DNA of 64,000 nt from an uncultured Gammaproteobacteria bacterium (GTDB lineage Bacteria > Pseudomonadota > Gammaproteobacteria > UBA9214): positions 96,381 to 160,380 of the forward strand of contig CAVWDM010000016.1 in assembly GCA_963753755.1 (NCBI GenBank), read 5' to 3'. This document shows positions 11,239 to 30,997 of this stretch, in pieces. Position 1 is the first letter of the stretch. Every line of letters starts with the position of its first letter. Both the position numbers and the translations under genes were made by a program. Under the pieces are notes generated by a model that was given only the letters and a program-made list of their open reading frames with translations, made no database searches and was not told where the DNA came from.

Positions 11239-11240
11239 AG

Positions 11241-12271: not shown

Positions 12272-12807
12272 GAGGCCACCTGCTGGAAACGCAGACGGTC
12301 GGCGAGCCGTTCCAGCGACAGCGCCACGCGCTGTTCAAGCTGCAGGCAAAAATACAGGCCGGGCAGGGCGACCACCATGCCGGCCATCGTCGGCAGGGTA
12401 GCTCGGGAAATACCGGAGGCCATTGCCCTGACATTGCCGGTGCCTGACACGGTGACGACGTCAAAGACCTCGACCATGCCGGTAACGGTACCGAGCAGAC
12501 CCAGTAACGGGCACAGTGCAACCAGCGTCTTCAGAAAGGGCAGCCAGTGACCCAATTCGATGCGCGCCTGTGAAATCAGCGCACTGCGTATCGGTCTGGC
12601 AAGGTTTTCTTCCTGCTGGCGTAACGTTTGCCAGGTGGCCTGGTAGCCGAGCACGCGCCGCGGGAAGATGCCGAGTACGAACCAGTAGCGTTCAGCCACG
12701 ATAAAACCGATGACGGCCGCGAGTACCAGTATCGCCCAGAGTACCGGCCCGCCGGCGTGCAGAAAACCGCGTACATCCTCAATTTGCCAGAGTATCAGGT
12801 CAATCAC
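12268..12807 (-). CDS. exbB: ExbB/TolQ (MotA/TolQ/ExbB proton channel).
   Basis: The ORF 12268..12921 overlaps the upstream gene, so the likely GTG start at 12805..12807 forms a GTGA start/stop overlap. MotA_ExbB-like TM core. Confidence 0.8.
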   Translation of the reverse strand: MIDLILWQIEDVRGFLHAGGPVLWAILVLAAVIGFIVAERYWFVLGIFPRRVLGYQATWQTLRQQEENLARPIRSALISQARIELGHWLPFLKTLVALCPLLGLLGTVTGMVEVFDVVTVSGTGNVRAMASGISRATLPTMAGMVVALPGLYFCLQLEQRVALSLERLADRLRFQQVAS

Positions 12808-14146
12808 GACGGCATACCTGGCGTGCGATGAGCCCAGCCGACTGTTCGTCGAGAATCTGTATGAGCGTACGACTGCGGCTTGCCAGCAGGGTATGTGAAA
12901 ACAGCAGTGGTATGGCGACAATCAATCCCAGCACCGTGGTGACCAGGGCCTGGGAAATGCCACCGGCCATGAGTTTCGGGTCGCCGGTGCCAAACAGGGT
13001 GATCGACTGGAAGGTCAGGATCATGCCGGTGACAGTACCCAGCAGTCCCAGTAGCGGTGCGACAGCCGCCAGTAGTTTCAACAAGCCAAGTCCGCGCTGC
13101 AATGCCGGTGTTTCTCTCAGGATTGCTTCGTCCAGTACCAGCTCGATGGCGTCGATGTCACGTTCGCCGGCGTCTTCGGCAGCCAGCAGTACCCGCCCGA
13201 GCGGGTTGTTATCACGGGCTTTACCGGGGTCAGCCAGTTGTTTTTTCACACGGCGGGCCACGCGTCCGAGAGCGCTGAGACGCAGTAGCACCAGCAGCAG
13301 TCCGAACACGCCGATGCTGAGGATGATGTAGCCGATGGCGCCGCCTTGCTGAACCCGTTCAGGCAGGGTAGGAGTTTTTGTCAGCATGCTGAGCAAACCG
13401 CCACGCGTTGGGTCAATAATCATCGGCGCATAGCCGCTAGCCTGGCCGGTAAAGGATGCCGCCAGCTTTTGCAACCGTCCCCCGGGTTGCCTGGAAAGCA
13501 CAGTAAAATGATTTATCTCCGGCTGAAAATGCAGGTACTGCCCATCCGCAATCGCGGTAAATACGCTGATTCGAATGACTTCACGCGGCTCGGTGACGCC
13601 GTCAGTATTGGTGACCTGTGCCTTGAAGCGACTCACCTGGCCTGACTGGATGATTTCCTGCTGCAGCAGCAGCCAGAAACGTTCCAGCTCGGTAATACTG
13701 GGTAGTTGCTTGCTTTTCGCCAGGATATCGAGCCATTCCGCGCGTTCAGGGTACTGTGCACTTACCAGTGAATCACGCAGCAGTGCCTGCAGGTCACCGG
13801 CAGTGTGCCTGACCGTTCCAAACAATTCACCGAGGTTACCGGAGCGGGTATTCAGTTCTGCTTGCAGTGTCTGCAGTGTCTCTTCATTGTCAGCATGCTG
13901 TTGCCTGAGTTGCTCTCCGCGATCACGTTCGGCGGCCACCCTGGCCCGCAATTCCGCCAGCAGAGCCTTCTGATCGGCGTTTTCCGCGAGGAAGCGCTGC
14001 TCTCGTTCCTTGCGAATACGTGCATCCTGCTTGTGTGCGACCTCTACCTGACGCAGCAGGTGATCGAGGCTGCTGGGATGATCGGCGCTGGCGAGCGTGC
14101 TACAGACAGCCAGCAGCAGGAACAGACCCGTCTTCAGCCTATTCAT
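12800..14146 (-). CDS. Large MotA/TolQ/ExbB-family protein with a long N-terminal periplasmic coiled-coil extension (TtpC-like).
   Basis: Start trimmed to MNRLKTGLFLLLAVCSTLASA (signal peptide). C-terminal ExbB-like TM domain (LGLLGTVTGMILTFQSI). Confidence 0.8.
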   Translation of the reverse strand: MNRLKTGLFLLLAVCSTLASADHPSSLDHLLRQVEVAHKQDARIRKEREQRFLAENADQKALLAELRARVAAERDRGEQLRQQHADNEETLQTLQAELNTRSGNLGELFGTVRHTAGDLQALLRDSLVSAQYPERAEWLDILAKSKQLPSITELERFWLLLQQEIIQSGQVSRFKAQVTNTDGVTEPREVIRISVFTAIADGQYLHFQPEINHFTVLSRQPGGRLQKLAASFTGQASGYAPMIIDPTRGGLLSMLTKTPTLPERVQQGGAIGYIILSIGVFGLLLVLLRLSALGRVARRVKKQLADPGKARDNNPLGRVLLAAEDAGERDIDAIELVLDEAILRETPALQRGLGLLKLLAAVAPLLGLLGTVTGMILTFQSITLFGTGDPKLMAGGISQALVTTVLGLIVAIPLLFSHTLLASRSRTLIQILDEQSAGLIARQVCRRD

Positions 14147-14948
14147 CGCCATCACCGGCGGCTGTGACCGGTAACTCGAGCAGTTCCGGTGCCAGTTGCT
14201 GACTGGCGATGCGCAGGCCTCGCTGGATGGCGCGCCGCTGTGCGCTATCGGCGGGAATCCATGCCTTTTGCCGGTTGTTCCAGTAGGCCGCGGCTTGTCG
14301 GTCGAGCGTCTGGTAGTACAAGCCGGTTCGTCCGACCCTGAGGACATCAACGGTGCGCAGTACGCCGTCGACCGGCAGTTCTTCCTGGCTGGCTTCCAGA
14401 GTGCGGCTGTAATCGAGCTCGATCTGGTAGGCTTCCAGAATGCGCCGGTATTTTTCCGCCAGCGTTATGTCTGCACGATCCATGAGATCGGTTAACTGTT
14501 GTACGCGGCTGCTGCGTTCGGCGAGCAGAAAGGGACGATCGGTGCTGATAAACGTCTCCAGCTGTTCGATCATGCGCAACATCAGGGGTACGATCTGCTC
14601 CCGGGTGAGATCGATATCCTCTATCTGTTGCGCGATCAGCAGTTTTTCCTCTGCCTGGGAGTCGACCAGTCGCTGCATCTGGTCGTTGTAGACGGTCAGG
14701 CCATCGAGTTCGCGGCTCAGGGCCTGGTATTCACCGAGCAGGGTTTGTGTTTCTTCACTGAGCTCGTCGATGTGTCTTTGCGTGCGCTGTTCACTGTGGA
14801 TGTTGTCCTCGCTTTTGGATAACACCTTTTCGACCGCGTCTGCGGCTGCCAGCGGTATTGGCAGCATGGCAGCACAGAACGCAAGTACCGGTACGGCATG
14901 TCGCATCGACAACAGCTTCAGCTTCATGCGCACCGTACTCACTCGCAT
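14139..14948 (-). CDS. DUF3450-type periplasmic coiled-coil protein, first gene of the TonB2-type cluster.
   Basis: Signal peptide and a coiled-coil-rich sequence. Position and size are typical. The start may instead be at 14927. Confidence 0.65.
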   Translation of the reverse strand: MRVSTVRMKLKLLSMRHAVPVLAFCAAMLPIPLAAADAVEKVLSKSEDNIHSEQRTQRHIDELSEETQTLLGEYQALSRELDGLTVYNDQMQRLVDSQAEEKLLIAQQIEDIDLTREQIVPLMLRMIEQLETFISTDRPFLLAERSSRVQQLTDLMDRADITLAEKYRRILEAYQIELDYSRTLEASQEELPVDGVLRTVDVLRVGRTGLYYQTLDRQAAAYWNNRQKAWIPADSAQRRAIQRGLRIASQQLAPELLELPVTAAGDGDE

Positions 14949-14956
14949 CGACCTGG

Positions 14957-17065
14957 CTAGTTGAAGCGGTATTGCAGGGTGGCGTAGTAATTTCGGCCCG
15001 CACCGGGAACCCGTTCACCAACGGGGACGTCCGAGTCCGTTACCCGGTTGATACCGGACAGGTGGTTCTGGTATTGCTTGTCGAAGATATTCTCGACGCC
15101 CACATTGACCGAGAGGTTGCGCATCACTTCGATACCACCACGCAGGTTCGCCAGGCCGTAGCCGGCGGATTCGGTTTCATCGTTGGTCTTCGAGACGTCA
15201 TTCTGCCGAGCGTAGGCCACAGCTTCGAGGCCGACCCACCAGTTCGCGCGGTTGTAGGACAACGTGGCGCTGCCGTTGAGTGGTGCGATACGGTAGAGGT
15301 TGTCATTGATGTCGTCGCGTTTACCTCGCACATAGCTGATTACACCGTCGAGCGACCAGTGGCTGCTCAGGGAAGCACCCCAACCCATATCAATGCCATA
15401 GAGCTTGGCATCAACGTTGCTCCATTGCAGTGGATTGGGATCACCATTTGCGGTGCTGACCATGATCACCGTGGGGTCGGTAGCGGGTGTTCCCTGGATA
15501 TAGTTATCGACGTAACGGTAGAATACCCGTGGTGTGAGATAGCCCCTTGGTGTGTTCCAGTCCAGCCCGAGGCCGGCCTCGTAGGCAGTTTCCTTGTCAA
15601 GATCAATATCGCCGACATAGTTGTGCCCGTCCGCCAGGCCATTGGTGGCTTGCAGCGGTACCCACAGGTAGAGCTGCTGGTAGGACGGTGCGCGGTTCTT
15701 GATACCCGCCTCGATATTGAATCCCAGCTGTGGTGAGTAGGCGTAGTCCAGCCGGCTCATCAGGTCAAAATTATTCTGGTTGTTGTCCTTGTCCGCGTCG
15801 TTGAATTGGGTCTGCAGCGTGTTGATCGCCGGATTCATGCCGGCCATAAAATGGGAAACGTCCCCGGACGAGCTATTCACCCGCGTATAGCGTCCGCCGA
15901 GTAACAATCCCCAGTCGCTGGCAATGCTACCGTCCCACTCGGCAAACGCGCCAAAGGCATCGCGCTTGACGTCGTTAAATCCCTCCACATAGAAGTTCGG
16001 GTTGTTTATGGGATCGGTTATGGTGGCATCGTGTTTATCGAACTGCCCATCCGTGCCCAGCAGCAGACGCCCCGTGCCCAGCGCAAAGCCGACATCGGCG
16101 CGATACCCCAGACCGTCACTGGTTGTGTAGTTCTCGCGGGTCATCATCGGCATGGGCGGATTGCGCAGGCTGTAGTTGTTCATCTTGTGTTCGACATCAT
16201 TATAGAACACCTGGCCGTGCACATCGTAAGCACCGAAGGCTCCGTTGTATTCGGATTGATAAATATCGGTATCGATATATATGATGTCCATCGGTAGTGA
16301 TGGTGTGCCGGTATCGTTGGTGCGGTTCTGTCGATAATCTAGGCCGATTTCCTGGCCGTTGTCCTGGAAGCCATAGCCGATACCGCCGTTCTTGCGATCG
16401 TATTCAGAAGGCGTTACCTTGCCGTCAGGGATCTTGTAGTCATCGCCTTTTTCCTTCGATCCATAGACATGCATGCGGTGGTTCCTGTTGGCCATCGCGC
16501 CAAAAGCGCCCAGCGTGTAGGATGAATCAACTGTTGCGCCACCCAGTGAGACATCCGCACTCGGGATGAAGTTGTCTCCGCTGCCAAAATGGCTGGTTCT
16601 CGCCGTGGCCTTCATGGTGCCGCCTATGGTTTCCAGTCCGGTGCTGACCGGGGCGATGCCGCGTATCACTTCCAGTGACTCCAGTTGAGCACGGGGAATA
16701 TAGGACAGTGGCGGGTCCATACCGTTGGGGCCGCCCGTGTTGAGATGAATGCCATTCACCAGCACATTGATCCGGTCGCCATACATGCCACGGTACTGGG
16801 CGAGACCGGTCAGCGGGCCGTTGCGGTTAACGTTTGCCCCGGGTGCCCGTTCCAGCAGCGCGGCGGTATCCGCAGTGGTCAGCGGAGCCTGTTGCAGCTC
16901 TATCGGGAATATATCCGGGCCATCTGGTGTTTCTCCCTGTACCGTCATTTCCGGCAGTTGCTGGGCTTCCTCGGTCTCGGCGCTGGCGCATGGCGATACC
17001 CCTAGTGATGTTGCCAGTAGCCACCAGTTAACCTGCCTGGCGGCAAATTTTTTCTTGTACAGCAT
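14957..17065 (-). CDS. TonB-dependent outer-membrane receptor.
   Basis: Start trimmed to MLYKKKFAARQVNWWLLATSLGVSPCASA, with an AGGGAGA RBS. TonB-box/plug region (EMTVQG), and a beta-barrel sequence rich in Y, G and N. Confidence 0.85.
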   Translation of the reverse strand: MLYKKKFAARQVNWWLLATSLGVSPCASAETEEAQQLPEMTVQGETPDGPDIFPIELQQAPLTTADTAALLERAPGANVNRNGPLTGLAQYRGMYGDRINVLVNGIHLNTGGPNGMDPPLSYIPRAQLESLEVIRGIAPVSTGLETIGGTMKATARTSHFGSGDNFIPSADVSLGGATVDSSYTLGAFGAMANRNHRMHVYGSKEKGDDYKIPDGKVTPSEYDRKNGGIGYGFQDNGQEIGLDYRQNRTNDTGTPSLPMDIIYIDTDIYQSEYNGAFGAYDVHGQVFYNDVEHKMNNYSLRNPPMPMMTRENYTTSDGLGYRADVGFALGTGRLLLGTDGQFDKHDATITDPINNPNFYVEGFNDVKRDAFGAFAEWDGSIASDWGLLLGGRYTRVNSSSGDVSHFMAGMNPAINTLQTQFNDADKDNNQNNFDLMSRLDYAYSPQLGFNIEAGIKNRAPSYQQLYLWVPLQATNGLADGHNYVGDIDLDKETAYEAGLGLDWNTPRGYLTPRVFYRYVDNYIQGTPATDPTVIMVSTANGDPNPLQWSNVDAKLYGIDMGWGASLSSHWSLDGVISYVRGKRDDINDNLYRIAPLNGSATLSYNRANWWVGLEAVAYARQNDVSKTNDETESAGYGLANLRGGIEVMRNLSVNVGVENIFDKQYQNHLSGINRVTDSDVPVGERVPGAGRNYYATLQYRFN

Positions 17066-17214
17066 GATAATCTCCCTTGAATCGGTACTTTGTGCTATTT
17101 TTTTTAAAACATAGTTAACACTGCAAATGCTAGCAGGATGTACCCTTTCAGAGCATGTGACCAATTGTCGCACCCTGATGAGGACGGCTCGGTGACAGTG
17201 GATATGACGATACG

Positions 17215-18192
17215 ATGATGACGACAGCGCAGCAGAGCATTGCCCGTCAACGTGATGCGCTGGGTATTTTCCTGCAAATGCCATTGACGCAACTCGCAAC
17301 GGTCTGCGCACGCGTCTGGCCCGATCGCGGGGCGCTGGAAGTGGCATTGCGAGCCGGTCTCGAGACCTTGCCTTACTGCGACCATTTATTCATCATGAAT
17401 CTGCAGGGTGTGCAGATAACGGCGCAGATCGGTGCCGGTGGGGATGATACCCGCTACATCGGCCTGGATCGGTCACAGCGACCGTATATGAAGGATGTGC
17501 TGACAACGTCTGATTTTGTACTCACCGAAGCCTATATCAGCGAACACAAGAAGCGTCCCAGCATCACAGCGATGCTTAAGGTGAAGCAGGAAGGTATCCC
17601 TGCCGGCTATTTGAGTGCACATTTCGACCTGCGCGATCTGCCATTGACGGCGCCCCTTTACGAGGAATCAACGGTCTGGCGGCAGATGAAAGGGGATCCA
17701 TCGATACGTGGCACACTCTTTCTCCAGCAACGTTTTGAAAGCGTACTCGACCAGCACATTGAGACCGTCATTGCCGTGATCGAGGAATTGATTGTCGATC
17801 ACGGTGTCTTCCATTGCGAAATCCATTTTTCCAGCAATCGCGCTACCATGTGGAGCCAGACTGACCCGTTCCGCTACCATATACTGGCTATCGATGAACT
17901 GGTTGATCCAGACATTTGCCTGACATTTACGCGCAGTACGTATCCGGAATCAGCGGTGATACCTGCCACAAACATCCGCCACTTGCTGGAATCGTTTCGT
18001 GACCTGCGCTTTGCTGACGAGACGATTTACCTGCGCACTGCTTCACTGAATGTCTACAACGGACTGGTGGGGCTGACGTTCTCCTGCGATGGTTCTCACA
18101 GCATCTTCGCAGACGAATTCCTCGACAAAGGGCTTGAGTTCTGGGTTGGCCGCGCAGCAGCGGGAATAACGACTGTACCCGGTGCGTCTTGA
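17215..18192 (+). CDS. Hypothetical cytoplasmic protein, possibly with a PAS/Cache-like fold, sitting immediately upstream of the Anbu module.
   Basis: Clean 325-aa ORF with no TM or signal peptide. No family recognised. Confidence 0.5.
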   Translation: MMTTAQQSIARQRDALGIFLQMPLTQLATVCARVWPDRGALEVALRAGLETLPYCDHLFIMNLQGVQITAQIGAGGDDTRYIGLDRSQRPYMKDVLTTSDFVLTEAYISEHKKRPSITAMLKVKQEGIPAGYLSAHFDLRDLPLTAPLYEESTVWRQMKGDPSIRGTLFLQQRFESVLDQHIETVIAVIEELIVDHGVFHCEIHFSSNRATMWSQTDPFRYHILAIDELVDPDICLTFTRSTYPESAVIPATNIRHLLESFRDLRFADETIYLRTASLNVYNGLVGLTFSCDGSHSIFADEFLDKGLEFWVGRAAAGITTVPGAS

Positions 18193-18297
18193 ACATCAGA
18201 CGTGACGCAGGCCTGCCATGAGGCGCGCAGCGGGATTCACGATCATCGTCTTGCAACCGTGTGCCTGTCCCCGCCTGCGCACCAAGCAGGTAGTGCA

Positions 18298-19206
18298 ATG
18301 ACTGTCCGCGTGGCCATGCACCACCAGACCGAGTACCGCTTTGACCGGCTGGTGACACTGGGGCCGCATATTCTGCGGCTGCGTCCGGCGCCGCACTGCC
18401 GGACGTCAATCCTGTCCTATTCGCTGAACATTCAGCCTGAGCACTATTTCATCAACTGGCAACAGGATCCCTTCGGTAACTTCCAGGCGCGCGTGGTCTT
18501 CACGGACAGGATGCGGCTGTTGCGCATCGATGTTGACCTGGTTGCTGAAATGGCCGCTATCAACCCATTCGATTTTTTTGTAGAGGAAAGAGCCGAATAC
18601 TGGCCTTTCGAATACGAGGCGAAATTACGGCATGATCTGATGCTCTATCTGGAACGTGAAGATGCCGGACCAGAACTGCGCAACTGGCTGGCGCAGCTGT
18701 CGCATGAGCGCACCAATACCATTGAGTTTCTGGTTGCCCTCAATGGCCGCCTGCAACAGGCTATTCACTACCAGCAGCGCATGGAGCCCGGATACCAGAG
18801 TTGCGAGGAGACGCTGGCAAAGACCTCGGGCTCCTGCCGCGATACAGCGTGGCTGCTGGTGCAGGTTCTGCGCCATCTTGGCATCGCCGCGCGTTTTGTG
18901 TCCGGCTACCTGATCCAGCTGGCGCCGGATACCCCCAGCCGTGACGGGCCGTCCGCTGCGCAACAGGACACCACCGATCTGCACGCCTGGGTGGAAGTTT
19001 ACCTACCCGGTGCCGGCTGGATCGGGCTCGATCCGACCTCGGGGATGTTCGCCGGTGAGGGGCACATCCCGCTATTCTGTACCCCCGATGCCGGCAGTGG
19101 CGCGCCGGTCAGTGGTAGCGGCGATGTATGTGAAACAGGGCTTTATTATCACAATCGCGTTACCCGCATCCGCGAGGGTGCGCATGGCAGCAAACCCGGT
19201 AGTTAA
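18298..19206 (+). CDS. Transglutaminase-like cysteine protease-fold protein with a Bact_transglu_N-type N-terminus.
   Basis: Start at MTVRVAMHHQTEYRFD. Predicted catalytic Cys in GSCRDTAWL, His in DLHAWVEVY and Asp in GLDPTSG. Confidence 0.85.
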   Translation: MTVRVAMHHQTEYRFDRLVTLGPHILRLRPAPHCRTSILSYSLNIQPEHYFINWQQDPFGNFQARVVFTDRMRLLRIDVDLVAEMAAINPFDFFVEERAEYWPFEYEAKLRHDLMLYLEREDAGPELRNWLAQLSHERTNTIEFLVALNGRLQQAIHYQQRMEPGYQSCEETLAKTSGSCRDTAWLLVQVLRHLGIAARFVSGYLIQLAPDTPSRDGPSAAQQDTTDLHAWVEVYLPGAGWIGLDPTSGMFAGEGHIPLFCTPDAGSGAPVSGSGDVCETGLYYHNRVTRIREGAHGSKPGS

Positions 19207-19354
19207 TACCTGCGATGAAGGGGGTTTTGTCCAGATTTACAACGCTTTCCCCGTCAAGAACTTAGCGGATCGCTAAAACATGTGTTGACGGCGACTGTCC
19301 ACACTTCCTACCATACAGACAGCTTGCGGCGCTCGCCGCGCGAGGTTGTTGAAT

Positions 19355-20116
19355 ATGACGTATTGTGTTGCAGTTAGAGTTGATGAAGGCTTGGTGTTTG
19401 TCTCGGATTCGCGCACCAATGCCGGTATCGACCGTTTAAGTACCTATAGCAAAATGTTCACATTCGGACGTGATGGTGAACGTTCGTTTGTGGTACTCAC
19501 GGCCGGTAATCTGGCCACCACGCAGTCCGTCATTTCCCAGATCAAGCGCGATATCAAGCAAAAGAATGTCCCCAATCTGATGACGGTCGAGAACATGACC
19601 GAAGCCGCCGAGTACGTCGGACAGTTGAGCGCATCCCAGCAGCAGAAGCACAGTACAGCGACGGCCGGAGGCGGCTTTGATGCCAGTGCCAGCTTTATAC
19701 TCGGTGGCCAGATCAGCGGCGGTTCACATCGAGTGTTCATGATCTATCCGCAAGGCAATTTCATAACGGCAACTGCAGAGAATCCCTACCAGCAGATCGG
19801 TGAGATCAAATATGGCAAACCGGTCCTGGATCGCATCATCATGCGCGACACCAGTCTCGAGGAAGCTGCGCTCGCGGCTCTGGTTTCGATGGATTCCACG
19901 ATGCGCTCCAATGCGACCGTGGGACCACCACTCGACGTGCTGATTTATGCGAAAGACAGTTTAAGCCTGAATCGTCATTTCATATTGCAGGCTGACGACC
20001 CCTACCTGCTCGAGATCAAGGCGGCCTGGGACGAGAAGCTCAAGGAAGCTTTTGCGGAACTCAGACGAGTTAACTGGAACGAGCCGACGTCCGTGTCAGT
20101 CGCCGACGAAGATTAA
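19355..20116 (+). CDS. Anbu, a proteasome-type Ntn-hydrolase homologue.
   Basis: Begins MTYCVAVRVDEGLVFVSDSRTNAG, so Thr2 is the predicted N-terminal nucleophile. About 250 aa, the size typical of Anbu. Confidence 0.85.
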   Translation: MTYCVAVRVDEGLVFVSDSRTNAGIDRLSTYSKMFTFGRDGERSFVVLTAGNLATTQSVISQIKRDIKQKNVPNLMTVENMTEAAEYVGQLSASQQQKHSTATAGGGFDASASFILGGQISGGSHRVFMIYPQGNFITATAENPYQQIGEIKYGKPVLDRIIMRDTSLEEAALAALVSMDSTMRSNATVGPPLDVLIYAKDSLSLNRHFILQADDPYLLEIKAAWDEKLKEAFAELRRVNWNEPTSVSVADED

Positions 20117-20326
20117 CCCGATGATTGAATTAATATTACTGTAGAAACGGCGTCACCTGCAGGGATGTAGGTGAGGGGCGTGAGCAGGACGCGGAAGTTT
20201 CTCGCCGCGCTTCGCGCCGGTGACGGTGCTCCTGCAGGGCTGAGCCAGAATCGCGGTATCGGTCATTATATTAATAAATACAGTAATTTACCACATACAG
20301 GAAACGTCTACTTGATCGCGGCGCTG

Positions 20327-21271
20327 TTACACCGCTTCCTGCAGATCGAGTGAGAACCAGGTAGCGGAAATCTGCTGGTGCAGGTTGCCGAATTCAAACT
20401 GCAGTTGGTCGATGAAGTCGTGCAGCCCCTCGGCGTGGAGTTTTTTCGTATCGGCTTCCGCCACCAGGCGCTGCAGACGCAACACCGCGCGCAGTGGTTC
20501 CTCGTTATGCGGCAAACTTTTCTCAAAGCAGGAGGCGATCTCGCCAAGCGTGTGCGCCACCGCACGTGGAAAAAGCATGTCCTTTAGCAGAAACGCCAGA
20601 ACCTGGTCTGGCTGGACCCGACGGCGGACGTACTGACGGTACATCTGGTGTGCGCTCAGCGAACGCAATACATAGGTCCAGAGACGATTTTCCAGGCGCT
20701 CCAGTTCCACACCGGGTGCGATCAGCGTTGTCGAGCCGACATCGATCATGCGCGTGGTCATGTCGGCACGTTCCAGATTGCGTCCCACGCGCACGAACTG
20801 GTAGGCCGGGCCATGGCTCATGGTGCCGGCCAGCAGCCCGGTGACCTGCTGGCAGCGCATCACGATTTCTGACAGAAACTCGTAGCGGTCCTTGGGGATT
20901 GTTTTTCCAGCGAGTTTTTTCCTTGCGAACAGGTACAGTTCATTGACGTGTTCCCAGCCCTCGCTGGGCACCAGGTCGCGGGTAGTGCGTATGTTTTCCC
21001 GCGCCATGGCCAGACTGGAGATTACCGAGCTGTGGGTGTCGGTGTCACTGAGCATGAACTTGATAACATTGCGTTCACCGGAGGTGCGGTAGTTCCTGTC
21101 GTAGTGATCGTGCGCGCCACTGACATCCACCAGTTGTCGCCAGTTGAGCCCGACCCCGTTGGGGAGGTCCAGCATCATGTTGGAATATACCTTCACCAGC
21201 CGGGCAGTGTTCTCGGCGCGTTCCAGATAGCGTGCCGTCCAGTACAGTCGTTCCGCTACGCGCGATAACAT
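20327..21271 (-). CDS. Alpha-E domain protein.
   Basis: Start at MLSRVAERLYWTARYLERAENTARL, the conserved alpha-E N-terminus. Its ATG abuts the stop of the upstream ATP-grasp gene. Confidence 0.85.
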   Translation of the reverse strand: MLSRVAERLYWTARYLERAENTARLVKVYSNMMLDLPNGVGLNWRQLVDVSGAHDHYDRNYRTSGERNVIKFMLSDTDTHSSVISSLAMARENIRTTRDLVPSEGWEHVNELYLFARKKLAGKTIPKDRYEFLSEIVMRCQQVTGLLAGTMSHGPAYQFVRVGRNLERADMTTRMIDVGSTTLIAPGVELERLENRLWTYVLRSLSAHQMYRQYVRRRVQPDQVLAFLLKDMLFPRAVAHTLGEIASCFEKSLPHNEEPLRAVLRLQRLVAEADTKKLHAEGLHDFIDQLQFEFGNLHQQISATWFSLDLQEAV

Positions 21272-21272
21272 C

Positions 21273-22724
21273 TCACTTGCCTCCCGTGTCCACGATCCAG
21301 GTGTCCTTGCTGCCGCCACCCTGCGAAGAATTTACCACCAGTGAACCCTTGCGCAGAGCCACTCTTGTCAGACCGCCAGCCGTCACGTAGGTACGGTCGG
21401 ACTGCAGGATAAACGGGCGCAGGTCAAGGTGGCGCGGCTCCACGTGCTGTCCGCAGATAGTCGGTGCGGTCGACAGGCTCAGGGTTGGCTGGGCGATGTA
21501 ATTGCGCGGATTGCGCTTGATGAGGTTGACGAACTTGCCGCGCTCCACGGTGGTTGCGTGCGGCCCCACCAGCATGCCGTAACCGCCCGATTCGTTGGCC
21601 GGCTTGACCACCAGCTTGTCGAGATTGGCAAGCACGTATTCGCGTTGCTCGCGGTCTTCGCAGCGCCATGACGGCACATTGGGAATGATCGGGTCCTGGT
21701 CCAGATAATACTTGATGATTGCAGGCACGTAGGTATAGATGACCTTGTCATCCGCGACGCCGGCGCCGGGGGCATTGGCAAGCGCCACGTTGCCGGCGCG
21801 CCAGGCGCGTAATAGACCGGGCACACCCAGCACCGAGTCTTCACGGAAGGCTTCCGGGTCGAGGAATTCATCGTTCACCCGCCGGTAGATGACATCAACG
21901 CGCTGTAGCCCGCCGATGGTTTTCATGTGGACACAGTCATCGTTGCTGACTACCAGGTCGCCGCCCTCCACCAGTTCAGCCCCCATCTGCTGCGCCAGGT
22001 AGGCGTGTTCAAAATAAGCCGAGTTATAGATGCCAGGCGTCATGACCACGATCTCGGGATAGTCCAGCGGTCGCGGCGACAGTGAGGCCAGCATATCGAA
22101 CAGGTGCGAGGGATAGTCATCAACCGGCAGGATACGGTGTTTGCGGAACAGTTCCGGGAACACGCGCTTGGTGATGCTGCGGTTCTCTATCATGTAGGAA
22201 ACGCCGGAGGGTACGCGCAGGTTGTCTTCGAGGACATAGAAGGTGCCGTCGCTGTCGCGGACCAGGTCTGACCCGCAGATATGTGCCCACACATTAAATC
22301 GCGGGCTGGCACCGACGCACTGCGGCAGGAAGCTTTTCGAACCGCTGATCAGTTTCCGCGGTAAGATGCCGTCGTGGAGAATCTTCTGGTCATTGTAGAG
22401 GTCATGGATGAACATATTGAGTGCGGTCATGCGCTGCTGCAGACCTTCCTCGATACGTGACCATTCCTTTAGCGGAACGATACGCGGGATAATGTCAAAC
22501 GGCCAGGTGCGGTCGATGTTGGTGCCTTCGCTGTAGACCGTAAAGGTCACGCCCATTTCCGCGATGGCCAGGTCGGCTGCATGCTGACGACGCCCCAGCT
22601 GCTTGGCACTGAGCCTTTGCAGGTAGCTTGCAATGGCATGCGCGGCACGGCGCGGATTACCGGGCGAACTGATCATCTCGTCATAGAATTCGCCCGGATC
22701 ATAGCTCGTCCACTCAATTTGCAT
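21273..22724 (-). CDS. Circularly permuted type-2 ATP-grasp protein (putative amidoligase).
   Basis: About 480 aa, starting MQIEWTSYDPGEFYDEMISSPGNPRRAAHAIASYLQRL, which is characteristic of the CP_ATPgrasp_2 family. Confidence 0.85.
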   Translation of the reverse strand: MQIEWTSYDPGEFYDEMISSPGNPRRAAHAIASYLQRLSAKQLGRRQHAADLAIAEMGVTFTVYSEGTNIDRTWPFDIIPRIVPLKEWSRIEEGLQQRMTALNMFIHDLYNDQKILHDGILPRKLISGSKSFLPQCVGASPRFNVWAHICGSDLVRDSDGTFYVLEDNLRVPSGVSYMIENRSITKRVFPELFRKHRILPVDDYPSHLFDMLASLSPRPLDYPEIVVMTPGIYNSAYFEHAYLAQQMGAELVEGGDLVVSNDDCVHMKTIGGLQRVDVIYRRVNDEFLDPEAFREDSVLGVPGLLRAWRAGNVALANAPGAGVADDKVIYTYVPAIIKYYLDQDPIIPNVPSWRCEDREQREYVLANLDKLVVKPANESGGYGMLVGPHATTVERGKFVNLIKRNPRNYIAQPTLSLSTAPTICGQHVEPRHLDLRPFILQSDRTYVTAGGLTRVALRKGSLVVNSSQGGGSKDTWIVDTGGK

Positions 22725-22786
22725 GCACTTGGCCCCAGTTCACTATTGATTCAGTCCGGAATCGCTGCACCCTGTTTGCATCATGC

Positions 22787-24265
22787 TCAGTAGCGAGCGG
22801 CGCGCATATGGTCGAGTCGACGGACAAATTCACCCATTATGATACGGTAAAGTTCATCACCGAGGTAGGCATCCTCCACGCCGCTGTCGATGGACGGATT
22901 GTCATTGACCTCGATAACAACAGCCCGCTGATCGTTCGATTTTATATCAACACCAAACAAACCGTCTCCGATCAGGCGCGCTGCACGGGTCGCTATTTTG
23001 CTGACTTCACGCGGCGCATGCTGGATGCCGACGGTTTCCGAGTTGCCGGCACGGTGCGTGCTGGCAGAATGGTTATAGATTTGCCAGTGCCCCCGTGCCA
23101 TATGATATTTACAGGCATAAATGGGACGGTTATTGAGAATGCCGATACGCCAGTCATAATCCGTCGGCATGAATTCCTGCAATAGCACGATTGCCGAACG
23201 CCTGAACATCTTCTCGACACGTTGCTCGAGTTCGGCACGGTTTTCTGCCTTCTCCACACCGATGGAGAAGGAGCCGTCCGGAATTTTCAGGATCACAGGG
23301 AAGCCCGGTTCCTTTTCGAGCTGCTCATAGTCAACGGGCTGGCCACGCAGCAACAGCTGTGTAACGGGGCGCGGAATATTGTGGGTATCCAGAAGTTCAT
23401 TAAGAAATACCTTGTTCGAGCAGCGCAGGATGGCATCAGGTGAATCGATAACGGTCAGTCCTTCATTCTCCGCACGTTTAGCAAACCGGTAGGTGTGATG
23501 GTTTACCGCGGTGGTTTCGCGGATAAACAGGGCATCGTACTCGGCCAGCCGGCCAAAGTCGTCCGGGGTGATCAGGTCCACGTCAAGTCCCAGTTCGCCA
23601 CCGGCGCGAATGAACTTGTTCATTGCGGTGCGGCTGCTTGGTGGCAGGGCTTCCTGTGGATTATGCAGGATGGCCAGGTCATAGCGGTAACGGCGCCGCG
23701 AGCGGGGCCGGCGCCAGACGCTTTTGCAGAAGGCATCCAGGCTGTCGCCAAACAGGGTTTGTTCCGCCTCGTCGAGTTCCTGCAATTTACCAAAGTCTAC
23801 CTTCACGATCTTCCAGGCCGGACTCCCGGTCAGTTTTACACGCAGAATGGGGGCGCTGTAGCGTTCGAAGAGGGTGCGGGCAAACGGGGCCAGCGTGGTT
23901 ATGGCACATTTGCCAAACACGATTAACAGCTCCAGTGTATCCAGGTCCGTCTGGTCCAGCTTGCGCAGGTAGGATTCGACCGCACGTTCCAGCTCGTTGT
24001 CGAACAGCCGGTAGTGATCGAAATTATGCAGGTCATTGATGGTGTTGACGGATGGAATGACCTTCCCACCCCTGGCTTCGCCGAGCAGTGAACAGTAATA
24101 GCCGTTACCCAGGTACTCGAGGCCGCTGCACAGGTTGATGATGTAGCCGGGATTTTGACTTGCCTGGGTCTGCTGCAGGTAAGCCTCTACAGTCATGATC
24201 TTTTCGCTGGGGTAGTACGGCGACCAGGCAGCAGCATCATCGACGATGATGCGGAATTGTTTCAT
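22787..24265 (-). CDS. RimK-like ATP-grasp ligase with an N-terminal domain of about 250 aa (RLAN-like).
   Basis: The C-terminal half aligns by eye with RimK (VILKIPDGSFSIGVEKAENRAELEQRVEKMFRRSAIVLLQEFMPTDYDWRIGILNNRPIYACKYHMARGHWQ...VIEVNDNPSIDSGVED). The N-terminal half is unrelated to RimK. Confidence 0.8.
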   Translation of the reverse strand: MKQFRIIVDDAAAWSPYYPSEKIMTVEAYLQQTQASQNPGYIINLCSGLEYLGNGYYCSLLGEARGGKVIPSVNTINDLHNFDHYRLFDNELERAVESYLRKLDQTDLDTLELLIVFGKCAITTLAPFARTLFERYSAPILRVKLTGSPAWKIVKVDFGKLQELDEAEQTLFGDSLDAFCKSVWRRPRSRRRYRYDLAILHNPQEALPPSSRTAMNKFIRAGGELGLDVDLITPDDFGRLAEYDALFIRETTAVNHHTYRFAKRAENEGLTVIDSPDAILRCSNKVFLNELLDTHNIPRPVTQLLLRGQPVDYEQLEKEPGFPVILKIPDGSFSIGVEKAENRAELEQRVEKMFRRSAIVLLQEFMPTDYDWRIGILNNRPIYACKYHMARGHWQIYNHSASTHRAGNSETVGIQHAPREVSKIATRAARLIGDGLFGVDIKSNDQRAVVIEVNDNPSIDSGVEDAYLGDELYRIIMGEFVRRLDHMRAARY

Positions 24266-24474
24266 GGGTGTTAGAGCGCCTCCAAGCTACATGCCACCAC
24301 GTGTGACGGCGCACAATGTCGCACCAATAATAGCGGCTGGCAAGTAATTTCAGTGTACCGTCAGCGGCGGTTGGCTTGTCGGCTCACGCTGGCTGGCAGC
24401 ATTGAAAAAAGCTTCCATGAAGCAATGCACTGCCATCATTATACCGGGATGGACCTGACTATTGCAGATGACTC

Positions 24475-25599
24475 ATGAACCGTGTCGCTACCCTGGACGA
24501 TATCGAGGCCCTGCTCGCGATAGAGCAGCAGAGTTTCGCTGCGGACCGCATCAGCAGGCGGCAGTTTCGCCACATGTTGACCCGGGCGAACGCTGCGGTG
24601 CTGGTGGAAGAGTGTGCGGGTCGAATCGTCGGCGATGTCGTGGTGCTGTTCTCGCGTGCCACGTCCGTCGCGCGCCTCTATTCACTGGCGGTTGATCCGG
24701 GTGCGCGTGGCCAGGGGGTGGCGAAAAACCTGATACAGGCTGCAGAGCAGGCTGCCTGGTCCAGGCGCCGTGCCTACATGCGTCTCGAGGTGCGCAAGGA
24801 CAACAGCGCGGCGGTTTCCCTGTATCAGCGTCACGGCTACCGGCGCTTTGGCGAGTGGGTGGATTACTATGACGACCATGCCGATGCCTGGCGCTTTGAA
24901 AAATCCCTGTCACCTGAACTGCGCCCGTCCTTGCGCAATGTCGCGTGGTACGAACAGAGCCTGGATTTTACCTGTGGTCCTGCTGCGCTGATGATGGCCA
25001 TGGCCACACTGAACCCGGCACTGCAGCCCGATCGCACGCTGGAATTGCGCCTCTGGCGCGAGGCAACCACGGTGTTCATGACCTCCGGTCATGGTGGTTG
25101 TGGTCCCTATGGCCTGGCGCTGGCCGCCGCGCGGCGCGATTACAGGGTGCGGGTATATGTCAGTGACAAGGGGGTACACCTGGTGGATTCCGTGCGCAGT
25201 GAAGACAAGAAGGAGGTCATGCGCCTGGTACAGGAGGACATGAGGCAGCAGTTAAGTACGCTCGGTGTGCCGGTTTATCACCGGGCCATGTCCATCGACA
25301 GAATGGAGGCCAGTTTCAATGGCGGGGCCATTCCGCTGGTACTGATTTCCTCCTGGCAGATCTACGGTGAACGCTTTCCACACTGGGTTGTGGTCACCGG
25401 CTTTGATGCGAACTTTGTTTACGTCAATGACCCCTATGTGGATTACGAGGCAGGGGAGACTGCGCTGGACTCGATCCACATGCCCATCGCGCGCGAACGC
25501 TTTGCGACCATGACGCGTTACGGACGGGTGAAACTGCAGGCGGTGGTCGTGTTGACCGCCCCTGCTGAATTCAACACGGCGACTGCGGGAAAGTCCTGA
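24475..25599 (+). CDS. Fusion of a GNAT N-acetyltransferase and a C39-like (papain-fold) cysteine peptidase.
   Basis: GNAT motifs (RGQGVAKNLI, LYQRHGY). C-terminal LDFTCGPAALMMAMATL and HWVVVTGFD are consistent with a C39-like Cys/His peptidase. Confidence 0.8.
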   Translation: MNRVATLDDIEALLAIEQQSFAADRISRRQFRHMLTRANAAVLVEECAGRIVGDVVVLFSRATSVARLYSLAVDPGARGQGVAKNLIQAAEQAAWSRRRAYMRLEVRKDNSAAVSLYQRHGYRRFGEWVDYYDDHADAWRFEKSLSPELRPSLRNVAWYEQSLDFTCGPAALMMAMATLNPALQPDRTLELRLWREATTVFMTSGHGGCGPYGLALAAARRDYRVRVYVSDKGVHLVDSVRSEDKKEVMRLVQEDMRQQLSTLGVPVYHRAMSIDRMEASFNGGAIPLVLISSWQIYGERFPHWVVVTGFDANFVYVNDPYVDYEAGETALDSIHMPIARERFATMTRYGRVKLQAVVVLTAPAEFNTATAGKS

Positions 25600-25620
25600 C
25601 GCGCGATCCACGTGGCCGTG

Positions 25621-26862
25621 TCAATGGTCGTGGTTGTGGCGGGTCAGCGGCTCATTGGCCCGGATCGAGGCGGCCGACAGTGTTCCTGACTGAGCCGTTA
25701 GCGCCAGGCATGAGACCTTCAATATCCGCCGTGCTGCCAGGATCCAGAACGGGCTGGCAAGCAGTGACAGTGCAATCACCGCAATCGTATACTGGTAGGC
25801 GATCTCGGTGATAATGCCGGCTGTCAGCCCAACGGCAGCCAGGACAAAGGAAAATTCGCCAATCTGGCTGAGCATTGCGCCGGCATAGAAACTTTCCCGC
25901 CATCGATAACCAAGGAAACGCAGGATAATGCCGTTCAGCAAGGTGTTGCCGACCAGTACGCTCAGCACCAGCAATAGCACCTGTACTGCATGCGAGGTAA
26001 TGAACGCGACATCAACCAGCATGCCAACGGAAACAAAAAACAGGGCAACAAAAATTACCCGGAACGGCTCCAGGGAGTGATGCACCCACTGGGTCTCGCG
26101 CGCCGCGGTTACCAGTATCCCGGCTGCAAAAGCACCCAGTGCGGTTGAAAGTTCCGCCATCCCCGTTAACAGGGACAGCCCGAGACAGATCAGCAATGCC
26201 GCGAATACCTGCAGTTCGGGGTCGCTGCGCAATAGCTGCCCGTAGGGAAAATGAAATGCGTCCTGCGAGAGTGCCCATAGCAGCACCGAGACAATGGCGA
26301 TTGATCCGGCGATCTGCAGGCCGAGGTCATTCCAGGCCGGTGTTTCACCACCAAGCAGCCCGATAATGATCAACATGGGGATGACAACCAGGTCCTGCAC
26401 CAGCAGAATGCCGAGGATGTCCTGGCCTTCCTTGATGTTAAGTTCCCCGGAATCACGCAGCAGCTTGATGATAACGGCCGTGCTGCTGAGGCTCGTGACG
26501 AAACCCAGCAGGATGATGCGCTCCAACGGCCAGTCGAACCACAGGCCGATCGGGATGACCAGGGCAACACTCAGAGCAACCTGTACCAGCGTGCCGACTA
26601 CGGCAATGCGCCATCCTGAAAGGAGCTGTCGTGGCGCGACCTCCATGCCGACGAAGAACAGCAGCAAGACAACCCCAAAGTCACCCATTCGGGAAGCAAG
26701 TGCCGTATCTGTCAAAAGGGCAAAGCCGAAAGGGCCGATGGCGACTCCGGCAATCAAATAGCCAATGACCTGGGGTTGTCGCAGCAGTTGTAGTGACAGG
26801 CCGATGAGCAGCACGATGGCGATGATGGCAACCATCGTCGGCAGCAGGGGGTCAATATGCAT
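25621..26862 (-). CDS. Cation:proton antiporter (CPA/Na_H_Exchanger family).
   Basis: About 12 TM segments. Contains AGVAIGPFGF and LLLFFVGMEV. Confidence 0.85.
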   Translation of the reverse strand: MHIDPLLPTMVAIIAIVLLIGLSLQLLRQPQVIGYLIAGVAIGPFGFALLTDTALASRMGDFGVVLLLFFVGMEVAPRQLLSGWRIAVVGTLVQVALSVALVIPIGLWFDWPLERIILLGFVTSLSSTAVIIKLLRDSGELNIKEGQDILGILLVQDLVVIPMLIIIGLLGGETPAWNDLGLQIAGSIAIVSVLLWALSQDAFHFPYGQLLRSDPELQVFAALLICLGLSLLTGMAELSTALGAFAAGILVTAARETQWVHHSLEPFRVIFVALFFVSVGMLVDVAFITSHAVQVLLLVLSVLVGNTLLNGIILRFLGYRWRESFYAGAMLSQIGEFSFVLAAVGLTAGIITEIAYQYTIAVIALSLLASPFWILAARRILKVSCLALTAQSGTLSAASIRANEPLTRHNHDH

Positions 26863-26875
26863 GTAATGACACCCG

Positions 26876-28033: not shown

Positions 28034-28200
28034 TGACTGCTTGTCCCAGGGTAGTGATAGGCACCGGCCTCAGATTATAAATACCGGAAAAAGGGCGTTG
28101 CATACCCAAATAGCGACGGGAGTAGCTGTGCCCGGCGTGCTGTTGGGCTCAGGCATCATGGGTTACGGCACACAGGCAACACCATGGTATCTGCTTATAG

Positions 28201-29187: not shown

Positions 29188-29280
29188 TTAATCGCCGGAT
29201 TGTCACATATAATTCCCTGCAAACGCGAGCGCCGGTCTCTATTGTCATTGTAGTGGTCCGCGGACCACCTCGCTTTGTTG

Positions 29281-30912: not shown

Positions 30913-30997
30913 AAAGGTCGGGTAAATGTTGAACGCGCCGGGCTGGGCTGTAATCACTACTGCGAGTGTAAATCCAGACCGGGCGGGCACTGGAAAA

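Follow-up and report, generated by a model that had tools for sequence, protein, structure and literature searches.

Between positions 18298 and 22724 of the window (the whole 64,000-nucleotide stretch of DNA analysed here, from an uncultured gammaproteobacterium) lies what is almost certainly an intact four-gene Anbu-1 module, in which genes for a transglutaminase-like enzyme (TGase), an Alpha-E domain protein and a circularly permuted (CP) ATP-grasp are all located at most 2.7 kb from the gene for Anbu (Table 1). The TGase and Anbu genes converge on the Alpha-E and ATP-grasp genes, and a further open reading frame, here called the fifth gene, precedes them; all five reading frames (5/5) were confirmed at the positions tabulated. 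Spacers measure 149 bp between a TonB-dependent receptor gene and the fifth gene, 105 bp from there to TGase, 148 bp between TGase and Anbu, 210 bp between Anbu and Alpha-E, 1 bp between Alpha-E and CP-ATP-grasp, and 62 bp between CP-ATP-grasp and the next gene. No gene for an AAA+ partner was found among the annotated neighbours in the window. The start codons are backed by Pfam profiles that begin at residues 1-7 and by homologues that align from residue 1; for TGase, a Pfam N-terminal domain beginning at residue 7 and the alignment of homologues from residue 1 favour ATG 18298 over GTG 18202.

Table 1. Genes and predicted elements at the Anbu locus (window positions)
Feature	Position	Strand	Length	Characteristics
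Fifth gene, soluble stand-alone double-PDC/dCache-like protein (predicted)	17215..18192	+	325 aa	no transmembrane segment, no output domain; judged outside the module
Transglutaminase-like cysteine enzyme	18298..19206	+	302 aa	Bact_transglu_N + Transglut_core; Cys180/His229/Asp245 triad
Promoter-like element	19285..19314	+		TTGACG, 18-nt spacer, TACCAT (consensus scan)
Small conserved hairpin	19326-19339	+		GCGGC-GCTC-GCCGC; after the promoter-like element, followed by a GAGG ribosome-binding site
Anbu, Anbu-1 subtype	19355..20116	+	253 aa	proteasome-beta/Ntn fold, no propeptide; Thr1/Asp17/Lys32 (mature numbering)
Alpha-E domain protein	20327..21271	-	314 aa	ATP-grasp partner; start 1 nt past the ATP-grasp stop codon
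Type-2 circularly permuted ATP-grasp	21273..22724	-	483 aa	predicted ATP-dependent carboxylate-amine ligase

Pfam searches on each product, supplemented for Anbu by comparison with PDB Anbu chains, upheld all four family assignments of the earlier note; judged by sequence, these matches are far above chance, with domains present at full length and catalytic residues intact. The TGase product combines both domains of the bacterial transglutaminase-like family (Bact_transglu_N, E = 1.4e-24; Transglut_core, E = 1.4e-20) with a triad that is invariant in 42/42 homologues. The Alpha-E protein matches its Pfam profile from position 1 to 294 of 294 (E = 2.8e-86) and contains the motif RYLERAEN, with R14, E17, R18 and E20 invariant in 48/48 sequences. 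The CP-ATP-grasp likewise covers CP_ATPgrasp_2 completely (1-374 of 374, E = 4.1e-166), members of its cluster bear the name 'circularly permuted type 2 ATP-grasp protein', and its identity of 61-94% to the ATP-grasps adjoining Anbu places it in the Anbu-associated orthologue group. ATP-grasp and Alpha-E are adjacent and co-directional in nearly every related locus in which both were detected, and appear to form a translationally coupled pair.

Placement of Anbu in the proteasome/Ntn-hydrolase fold was supported by a match to Proteasome (PF00227, E = 4.4e-7, exceeding the gathering score) and by phmmer matches over residues 2-241 to the Anbu structures 5LOY (1.2e-76), 5NYW (6e-69), 5LOX (1e-65), 5NYJ (5e-62) and 5NYF (1.9e-61), the best of which is the Anbu-1 consensus design 5LOY. 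The protein starts Met-Thr-Tyr-Cys, with Thr directly after the initiator Met and no propeptide, and among relatives T2 is kept in 80/81 and D18 and K33 in 81/81 (precursor numbering), in agreement with the earlier proposal that Thr2 is the likely Ntn nucleophile, becoming Thr1 once Met is removed. The S1 pocket (T20/Y30/T48/L52/T55, mature numbering) differs from that of Pa-Anbu (T20/F30/T48/L52/S55; PMC5666114) by two conservative changes and contains no Arg, which makes it of the Anbu-1 type and not the basic Anbu-2 type. Both Pa-Anbu and a consensus Anbu form an open split-ring/helical dodecamer, in which proteasome inhibitors bind covalently at Thr1 (PMC5666114).

The spacer between TGase and Anbu holds a promoter-like element, both hexamers of which are invariant or nearly so in six loci with Anbu identity as low as 78%, the remainder of the spacer diverging. 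Over the region as a whole, the consensus scan gave about as many promoter-like sites as expected by chance. In one relative (L046) the stretch from 19226 onwards was retained despite deletion of TGase. Consensus match and phylogenetic footprint point to the element as a putative promoter of Anbu's own, suggesting that Anbu is (also) transcribed alone and that TGase-Anbu may not be one simple unit. Of the two convergent transcription units described in the earlier note, the orientation stood, and the reading of TGase and Anbu as a single unit calls for qualification.

Linkage and strand arrangement in related loci

Among the 80 nearest species-representative Anbu loci, 44 carried the orthologous ATP-grasp (at least 55% identity) and Alpha-E within 10 kb of Anbu, so that synteny does extend to other genomes. 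Counting only loci that have the pair or 5 kb or more of sequence to either side of Anbu, linkage was 44/64; in the other 20, all of them flanked by 5 kb or more on each side, ATP-grasp and Alpha-E were absent nearby. The pair lay on the strand opposite Anbu in 44/44 informative loci (27 convergent, 17 divergent). An opposite-strand split is usual in this Anbu clade, and closeness maintained despite it in all 44 loci argues that the genes are kept together for reasons other than co-transcription. The same four-gene arrangement was found amid unrelated flanks in four loci (L009, L010, L173 and L174), a recurrence that marks the module as a self-contained cassette. TGase (at least 50% identity) was missing nearby in 55/80 loci, and L046 has lost it while keeping the other three module genes; the four proteins thus need not be an obligate unit.

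These observations bear on the possibility that Anbu works on its own as a self-compartmentalising protease, expressed from a separate promoter, and that ATP-grasp and Alpha-E, with or without TGase, constitute a separate amidoligase system, the two being only co-regulated or historically linked. The strand opposition in every informative locus, the 20 further loci without the pair nearby and the conserved promoter-like element just ahead of Anbu are all in keeping with it, as are the existence of second, paralogous ATP-grasp/Alpha-E/TGase sets (for example, L058-L075), the finding that the Yersinia proteins showed neither complex formation nor mutual stimulation (PMC6376114), and the view of Fuchs et al., who favour a degradative role and consider peptide synthesis less likely (PMC5666114). 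Nonetheless, adjacency has survived many rearrangements (convergent, divergent and variably spaced) and is kept in cassettes moved to unrelated flanks, which would hardly be expected if the genes were not functionally coupled, and P. putida co-induces Anbu and ATP-grasp (PMC8050072). We regard so loose a neighbourhood as rather unlikely.

The module could also be part of a larger unit, with a gene for an RLAN-RimK ligase (22787-24265) co-transcribed with CP-ATP-grasp and Alpha-E and forming, together with a divergent GNAT and C39-like peptidase gene (24475-25599), TGase and Anbu, one peptide-modification system. The RimK gene is on the same strand as the pair across the 62-bp spacer, with no terminator predicted, no conserved promoter could be recognised ahead of ATP-grasp, the arrangement is kept in L169-L172, and both systems are predicted sets of an amide ligase and a peptidase. 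However, neither the RLAN-RimK nor the GNAT-DUF3335 gene occurred in any of the 80 surveyed Anbu loci, save for a 44-residue RimK remnant in L046, which deleted both genes and retains ATP-grasp, Alpha-E and Anbu. Three loci (L173, L174 and L009) have the cassette without RimK/GNAT genes, and elsewhere the RimK/GNAT set accompanies DUF2817 and no Anbu genes, making a two-ligase unit very unlikely.

The fifth gene

The earlier note had called the fifth gene unrecognisable and possibly lineage-specific. Neither description held: although no Pfam or NCBIfam family was found at E <= 0.01, the gene belongs to a large family (4,743 homologues at E <= 1e-3, some named 'PDC sensor domain-containing protein') with a predicted dCache/PDC-like fold. 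Its AF2 model (mean pLDDT 83) comprises a helix at residues 4-33 followed by two PAS-like alpha/beta modules, and the top 50 Foldseek matches in PDB are almost all dCache/PDC sensor domains, led by those of KinD (4JGP), CtaA (6PYI), Tlp3 (6W3R), PctA (5T65) and DctB (3E4O). With these it shares the long N-terminal helix and the two PAS-like modules (Foldseek probability 1.0, E about 3e-6), although the TM-scores, taken over some 150 aligned residues, reach only 0.3-0.5, and the invariant features of the family (motifs FSCDGSH, HFSSxRA and GDPxIR; Cys55, Cys235, Cys291, His200 and His295) have no known counterpart. The match to Pfam dCache_1 (E = 0.011, 15.8 bits) falls below the cut-off of 45, and 15/26 family members match it weakly at E <= 0.1 (best 3.5e-7). 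What the model indicates is a resemblance to the dCache fold and not membership in the curated family. No 19-residue segment exceeds a Kyte-Doolittle hydropathy of 1.6, and no further domain was found in the 325 aa, so that the layout of an extracytoplasmic sensor with an output domain is missing; lacking a signal peptide, transmembrane helices and any output domain of the kinase, MCP or GGDEF kind, the protein is predicted to be soluble and stand-alone.

It had also been suggested that the fifth gene is an additional module component, in which case its product would serve this lineage as a sensor or regulatory subunit, and the gene would be transcribed together with TGase and Anbu. The 105 bp separating it from TGase on the same strand contain no predicted terminator-like site, and a dCache-like ligand-binding fold might in theory detect a metabolite. 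The gene probably already adjoined the module in the ancestor shared by the window, L169 and L046; a 5' remnant of it persists in L169, and the fifth gene and TGase are missing together in L046. Against a five-gene system, Anbu, TGase, Alpha-E and ATP-grasp were found in none of the 80 metagenome loci carrying a fifth-gene homologue, nor were Anbu-module genes found in five further neighbourhoods; conversely, a homologue was present in only 1/80 Anbu loci, about 8.5 kb off. An 85%-identical orthologue is flanked by an RLAN-RimK gene and a Na+/H+ exchanger, without Anbu genes, and outside this genus-level lineage the gene occurs in the context of cation-transport genes. Exactly 17229-18283 of the window is missing from L169 and L170 (neighbourhood 89-96% nucleotide identity), where the short 5' remnant is left, and 17176-19225 is missing from L046. 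From the aligned sequences, with their different breakpoints, the closest relatives deleted the fifth gene in two independent events, while the module stayed intact at 91-96% identity. The four-gene cassette also recurs without it in unrelated flanks. Its membership in the module is largely refuted, and we consider a five-gene system extremely improbable; the fifth gene is a bystander, by its predicted fold a soluble dCache/PDC-like ligand-binding protein that merely abuts the module here.

Relation to known systems and proposed mechanism

The co-occurrence of these four families, as the earlier note stated, is documented: ATP-grasp, Alpha-E, transglutaminase-like protein and Anbu make up the Anbu operon of proteobacteria (Valas & Bourne 2008; Iyer et al. 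2009; PMC5666114; PMC6376114), with examples in the P. aeruginosa PA1733 region, Yersinia bercovieri and P. putida PP_2685-2688. Like that operon, the window encodes the same families at full length and an Anbu-1-type protein with Thr1/Asp17/Lys32 and no propeptide; no difference in domain content was found. What differs is gene order only and not family membership. In the literature the four genes form one operon of conserved order (PMC6376114), whereas the window lacks the canonical order of ATP-grasp, Alpha-E, transglutaminase and Anbu, and here, as in the 44/44 informative clade loci, Anbu is opposite ATP-grasp/Alpha-E; in the window, TGase lies ahead of Anbu, for which there is a separate promoter-like element.

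Anbu-less triads of CP-ATP-grasp, Alpha-E and transglutaminase (the amidoligase systems of Iyer et al. 2009; the NtrC-dependent B. cenocepacia cluster I35_5080-83, PMC5491218) share the coupled pair and a Bact_transglu_N/Transglut_core protein with the window, the copy in which is unlike them in being of the Anbu-associated orthologue group. Paralogous sets of the triad kind (ATP-grasp 37-39% identical) are located upstream of Anbu in Methylococcales loci. The window TGase is short and not of the long, DUF2126-containing form seen in L174. With pupylation (Pup-PafA-Dop-20S) and the ubiquitin-proteasome system the likeness is one of analogy only, in that genes for an ATP-dependent amide ligase, for an enzyme of the amidase/transamidase type and for a proteasome homologue with a Thr nucleophile occur together. 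In contrast to those systems, the locus has no gene for a Pup- or ubiquitin-like tag, no conserved small spacer ORF and no AAA+ unfoldase, and its ligase has a circularly permuted ATP-grasp fold, compared with the glutamine-synthetase-like fold of PafA. The spacer between Anbu and Alpha-E is of variable length, from overlapping ends up to 210 bp. Anbu rings are open and split, as opposed to the closed barrels of proteasomes (PMC8665760).

The module is a further copy of an already described system whose function is still unsolved, as the earlier note had correctly stated (no Anbu operon has a known substrate, product or physical interaction; PMC6376114), and the window offers no new handle on that function. 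Anbu of Yersinia, Hyphomicrobium and Pseudomonas were inactive on standard proteasome substrates, and pull-downs gave no complexes (PMC6376114); proteasome inhibitors do bind Pa-Anbu (PMC5666114), and the Yersinia ATP-grasp orthologue releases orthophosphate from ATP (PMC6376114). Nitrogen limitation induces PP_2685 and PP_2688 of P. putida (PMC8050072) and also the B. cenocepacia cluster I35_5080-83, the latter in an NtrC/sigma-54-dependent manner (PMC5491218). No sigma-54-type promoter above chance was found in the window, the sequence of which thus leaves nitrogen control unsupported here.

An intact Anbu-1 module beside a bystander gene, operating by the mechanism that follows, is very probably the best explanation of the locus as a whole; the mechanism taken by itself, from ligation through TGase processing and Anbu hydrolysis to nitrogen turnover, is put forward tentatively. 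Together with Alpha-E, which would be an obligatory partner or specificity subunit, the ATP-grasp would spend ATP on converting a carboxylate into an activated acyl-phosphate and then form an amide bond with the amine of an amino acid, peptide or protein. Through its Cys thiol, the transglutaminase-like enzyme may transamidate or trim such amide or gamma-glutamyl linkages or release ammonia from them, and Thr1 of Anbu would cleave peptide bonds in the resulting or associated substrates. The role of such a system would probably be the turnover of peptide or protein nitrogen under nitrogen limitation.

The Anbu-1 module and its arrangement across the clade

All five open reading frames claimed in the earlier note on this DNA are present in the window, and the family names it gave to four of them, a transglutaminase-like protein (TGase), the proteasome homologue Anbu, an Alpha-E protein and a circularly permuted ATP-grasp (CP-ATP-grasp), were borne out by Pfam and, for Anbu, also by solved Anbu structures. 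NCBIfam held no model for any of the four products. The Anbu product matched all solved Anbu chains over its own full length (5LOY, E = 1.2e-76; 5NYW, 6e-69; 5LOX, 1e-65; 5NYJ, 5e-62; 5NYF, 1.9e-61), and these matches make its identification far more secure than Pfam alone would.

Features of the window around the Anbu module, with Pfam E-values where available
Feature	Position	Strand	Content or match
TonB-system cluster	9982-17065	-	TPR protein, TonB, MotA/ExbB-family protein, DUF3450, TonB-dependent receptor
Fifth gene	17215-18192	+	325 aa; dCache_1, weak match (0.011)
TGase	18298-19206	+	Bact_transglu_N (1.4e-24), Transglut_core (1.4e-20)
Conserved footprint	19247-19345		CCCCGTCAAG..CTTAGCGG block, promoter-like pair, hairpin
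Promoter-like pair	19285-19314		TTGACG-18 nt-TACCAT
Small hairpin	19326-19339		GCGGC-GCTC-GCCGC
Anbu	19355-20116	+	Proteasome PF00227 (4.4e-7), above gathering score
Convergent spacer	20117-20326		210 bp
Alpha-E	20327-21271	-	Alpha-E (2.8e-86), entire profile covered
CP-ATP-grasp	21273-22724	-	CP_ATPgrasp_2 (4.1e-166), entire profile covered
RLAN-RimK	22787-24265	-	RLAN plus RimK-type ATP-grasp
GNAT-DUF3335	24475-25599	+	GNAT acetyltransferase fused to C39-like peptidase domain, DUF3335
Cation-transport genes	25621-32451		Na_H_Exchanger twice, CorA, MgtE, CNNM (the last three at 28201-32451)

Thr2, Asp18 and Lys33 of Anbu (precursor numbering) are present and conserved among relatives, as are Cys180, His229 and Asp245 of the TGase in 42 of 42 sequences and R14, E17, R18 and E20 of Alpha-E in 48 of 48. 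The S1-pocket positions of the window Anbu (T20/Y30/T48/L52/T55) have the Anbu-1 pattern, which in Pa-Anbu is T20/F30/T48/L52/S55, and are unlike the basic pocket of Anbu-2 (PMC5666114). Hydrophobic segments were found in none of the four module proteins or the fifth protein, and 1 nt separates the CP-ATP-grasp stop from the Alpha-E start. The module is a member of the Anbu-1 type, with every defining feature of its proteins that sequence can test present; the sole defining feature missing, conserved gene order in one operon, is likewise missing across the surrounding clade.

The opposite-strand arrangement, described in the earlier note as a departure from a single operon, is real but is the rule in this clade. 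Among the 80 nearest Anbu loci from species-representative genomes, an orthologous ATP-grasp (at least 55% identity) with Alpha-E flanks Anbu in 44, which upholds the synteny of these families, and in all 44 the pair lies on the strand opposite to Anbu (27 convergent, 17 divergent). No orthologous ATP-grasp/Alpha-E was found in 20 of the 80, each of which extends 5 kb or more to either side of Anbu, and a TGase (at least 50% identity) was in the flank of just 25. The exact order TGase, Anbu > < Alpha-E, ATP-grasp recurs in the related loci L009, L010, L169-L172, L173 and L174 (78-96% Anbu identity). Since the flanks in L009, L173 and L174 are unrelated to those of the window, the four genes behave as a self-contained cassette.

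The window comes from a gammaproteobacterium related to Thiogranum-like MAGs, and several of the related loci have peculiarities of their own. Of the species representatives, L009 (CAVYIJ010000006.1; Anbu 79%, ATP-grasp 89% identical) has the cassette most like that of the window; its record bears the title 'uncultured Halobacteria archaeon', probably an error of labelling or binning given the gammaproteobacterial look of its genes. The 88%-identical L173 (10902-13303) has Alpha-E and CP-ATP-grasp each called as two fragments, either through pseudogenisation or through frameshift errors of a long-read assembly. Upstream of Anbu in L174 (6615-9863; a Thiogranum MAG) lies a 1,082-aa transglutaminase with Bact_transglu_N, Transglut_core and DUF2126, long beside the 302-aa TGase of the window, and in this MAG Anbu and Alpha-E overlap at their 3' ends. 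Methylococcales loci (L058, L063, L065, L068, L069, L074 and L075) carry a paralogous set co-directionally upstream of Anbu (CP-ATP-grasp 37-39%, Alpha-E about 24%, TGase about 25% identical), with the orthologous high-identity TGase further upstream; these genomes seem to have two ligase sets close to one Anbu.

The fifth gene

The protein encoded next to the TGase, previously called unrecognisable, belongs to a large family with a dCache-like fold. Pfam and NCBIfam gave nothing at E <= 0.01, and 4,743 database proteins matched at E <= 1e-3, among them entries called 'PDC sensor domain-containing protein' and others with a precomputed dCache_1 match; 15 of 26 relatives matched dCache_1 itself at E <= 0.1. 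AlphaFold2 modelled the protein, with a mean pLDDT of 83, as two alpha/beta modules preceded by a long N-terminal helix. In a Foldseek search of the PDB with this model, nearly all of the top matches were dCache/double-PDC sensor domains, including those of KinD, CtaA, Tlp3, PctA and DctB (E about 3e-6, probability 1.0, TM-score 0.3-0.5). From the homologues, the family alignment, the model and the weak dCache_1 match, we conclude that the protein is soluble and dCache-like, stands alone and has no output domain. The 26-member alignment has very strong motifs (DRSxRPY, GDPxIR, HFSSxRA, FSCDGSH) and invariant Cys55, Cys235, Cys291, His200 and His295, which might point to a metal or cofactor site. 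Large, with invariant Cys/His and no Pfam model, this soluble dCache-like family may merit its own study.

The earlier note's suggestion that this gene is a lineage-specific extra component of the module was refuted by three independent tests. Viewed from the gene's own side, no Anbu-module gene lies near its homologues: none occurs in five homologue neighbourhoods (53-85% identity), and tblastn with the window proteins found Anbu, TGase, Alpha-E or ATP-grasp in none of 80 metagenome loci drawn from the family alignment. Clustering of the flanking ORFs of these 80 loci revealed no family-wide neighbour, the best cluster (Rnf-type genes) reaching 8. From the Anbu side, a homologue was present in 1 of the 80 nearest loci (L081, 47% identical, about 8.5 kb from Anbu).

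Natural deletions provide the third test. The loci L169 and L170 (Anbu at least 90%, DNA 89-96% identical to the window) have the order TonB-dependent receptor, TGase, Anbu > < Alpha-E, ATP-grasp, RLAN-RimK, GNAT-DUF3335 > < Na+/H+ exchangers, as in the window, and lack window positions 17229-18283, almost exactly the fifth gene, of which the first 14-30 nt or so are kept. L046 (Anbu 95% identical) lacks 17176-19225, comprising the fifth gene and the TGase, and separately 22880-25489, comprising RimK and GNAT-DUF3335, the 3' ends of both genes remaining. As the breakpoints differ, two or more separate events removed the fifth gene and left the rest intact. With all three tests negative, its position beside the module is an old accident of this genus-level lineage and reflects no functional requirement. 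The module proposed in the earlier note thus stands as real and correctly named; the fifth component, the sole element that would have made it unusual, can be dropped.

Closer relatives of the fifth gene (at least 65% identity), and only these, recurrently sit beside a Na+/H+ exchanger or Mrp antiporter, often convergent, in a cation-transport context that also includes MscS, CNNM, CorA and MgtE; genes of the same kinds lie just past the module in the window. Some 16.5 kb of the window (28055-44633, which includes CorA, MgtE and CNNM) has no counterpart in L046 (9138-9562), where it would fall between two syntenic blocks, and could represent a gene-content difference or a rearrangement. On the other side lies the TonB-system cluster, to which gene calls in the syntenic L169 add ExbD and a second MotA/ExbB gene; a long ORF at 14957-17347 over-extends, the TonB-dependent receptor probably starting near 17065.

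A candidate Anbu promoter and the adjoining RimK set

The 148-bp spacer between TGase and Anbu contains a promoter-like pair; across six loci, with Anbu identity as low as 78%, its two hexamers vary little or not at all, while the rest of the spacer diverges outside a conserved footprint that also takes in a small hairpin; a ribosome-binding site follows. Sequence from 19226 onward is kept in L046 despite loss of the TGase. We infer that this candidate promoter drives at least part of the transcription of Anbu. Upstream of CP-ATP-grasp no conserved promoter was recognised, the ribosome-binding region alone being conserved. Promoter and terminator scans of 16900-25700 gave counts at chance, with no terminator between any module genes. 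The convergent spacer was considered as a structured or inserted element with flanking AT-rich inverted repeats and rejected: its folding z-score is -1.2, no repeat of it occurs in the window or 88 loci, and it is shorter or absent in relatives. No Rfam family reached gathering score across the window, and the module spacers, either length-variable or filled by the promoter-like footprint, contain neither a tag gene nor a small ORF that is conserved.

A second predicted amide-ligase/peptidase set, the RLAN-RimK and GNAT-DUF3335 genes, adjoins the module. CP-ATP-grasp begins 62 bp downstream of RLAN-RimK on the same strand in the window and in L169-L172, which places the ligase pair directly behind a predicted RLAN-RimK poly-amino-acid ligase in this genus; no other Anbu locus surveyed shows this adjacency, which L046 has lost by deletion. 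L004 carries a 43-49% identical RimK/GNAT pair together with a DUF2817 gene that is missing in the window. The TGase is itself deleted in L046 and absent near Anbu in most relatives. It is conceivable, and we consider it very improbable, that re-wiring has put the parts of the clade's Anbu system under separate control (Anbu with its own promoter and 5'-UTR hairpin, a dispensable TGase, and the ligase pair behind RLAN-RimK), and that the two ligases, if RimK, CP-ATP-grasp and Alpha-E formed one transcript, might build and extend one peptide tag or polymer for processing by GNAT-C39, TGase and Anbu. If true, this composite would be a system not yet described.

One pathway or an independent protease

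Published work shows that the Yersinia ATP-grasp releases orthophosphate from ATP, that Anbu proteins have proteasome active-site geometry yet are inactive on standard proteasome substrates, and that the operon proteins were not seen to form stable complexes (PMC6376114). Proteasome inhibitors that imitate the initial steps of cleavage bind to Pa-Anbu (PMC5666114), which assembles into a dodecameric split ring of open form (PMC5666114; PMC8665760). Module orthologues are induced under nitrogen limitation (PMC8050072; PMC5491218): Pseudomonas putida PP_2685 and PP_2688 are up by log2 4.4 and 4.0 with nitrate as compared with ammonium (PMC8050072), and a Burkholderia cenocepacia DUF404/407-DUF403-transglutaminase cluster is NtrC/sigma-54 dependent (PMC5491218). 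Our literature search found no later functional study of Anbu. A scan of the window for TGGCAC-N5-TTGCW (up to 2 mismatches) gave 48 matches against 46 expected, and the one match close to where a module gene begins (24281-24296, upstream of RimK) is without the -12 GC; with no above-chance promoter of this class, NtrC/sigma-54 nitrogen control finds no support in the sequence here.

Drawing on this literature and on family knowledge, and not on the window itself, we tentatively favour a scheme to which we give somewhat below even chances: the ATP-grasp and Alpha-E would take an amino acid, peptide or protein as substrate and make an amide bond on it by way of an acyl phosphate, the Cys/His/Asp enzyme would transamidate or trim these linkages, Anbu would hydrolyse the resulting peptides, and the whole set would serve nitrogen-scavenging turnover. 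The main rival, which we consider unlikely, is that Anbu is an independent protease, tied to the ligase pair only by shared regulation or history. The opposite-strand rule, Anbu's own promoter-like element, the frequent absence of the TGase and the negative interaction data speak for this rival; for coupling speaks the adjacency of Anbu to the ligase pair, which survives many rearrangements and relocations. Any likeness to pupylation or ubiquitin is by analogy only, since the module has no tag gene or conserved small ORF, no AAA+ unfoldase, and a ligase of a different fold.

The Anbu module is among the few widespread proteasome-related systems without a known substrate or role, which makes every instance a candidate for functional studies. 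The window itself adds little, its proteins being ordinary members of the Anbu-1 type, and the leverage of this copy is limited to its candidate Anbu promoter and its natural deletion variants, which reveal dispensable genes: one variant does without the fifth gene, another without the fifth gene, TGase, RimK and GNAT. That Anbu in this clade is kept near the ligase pair, never co-directional with it and with its own promoter-like element, bears on whether these genes form one pathway.
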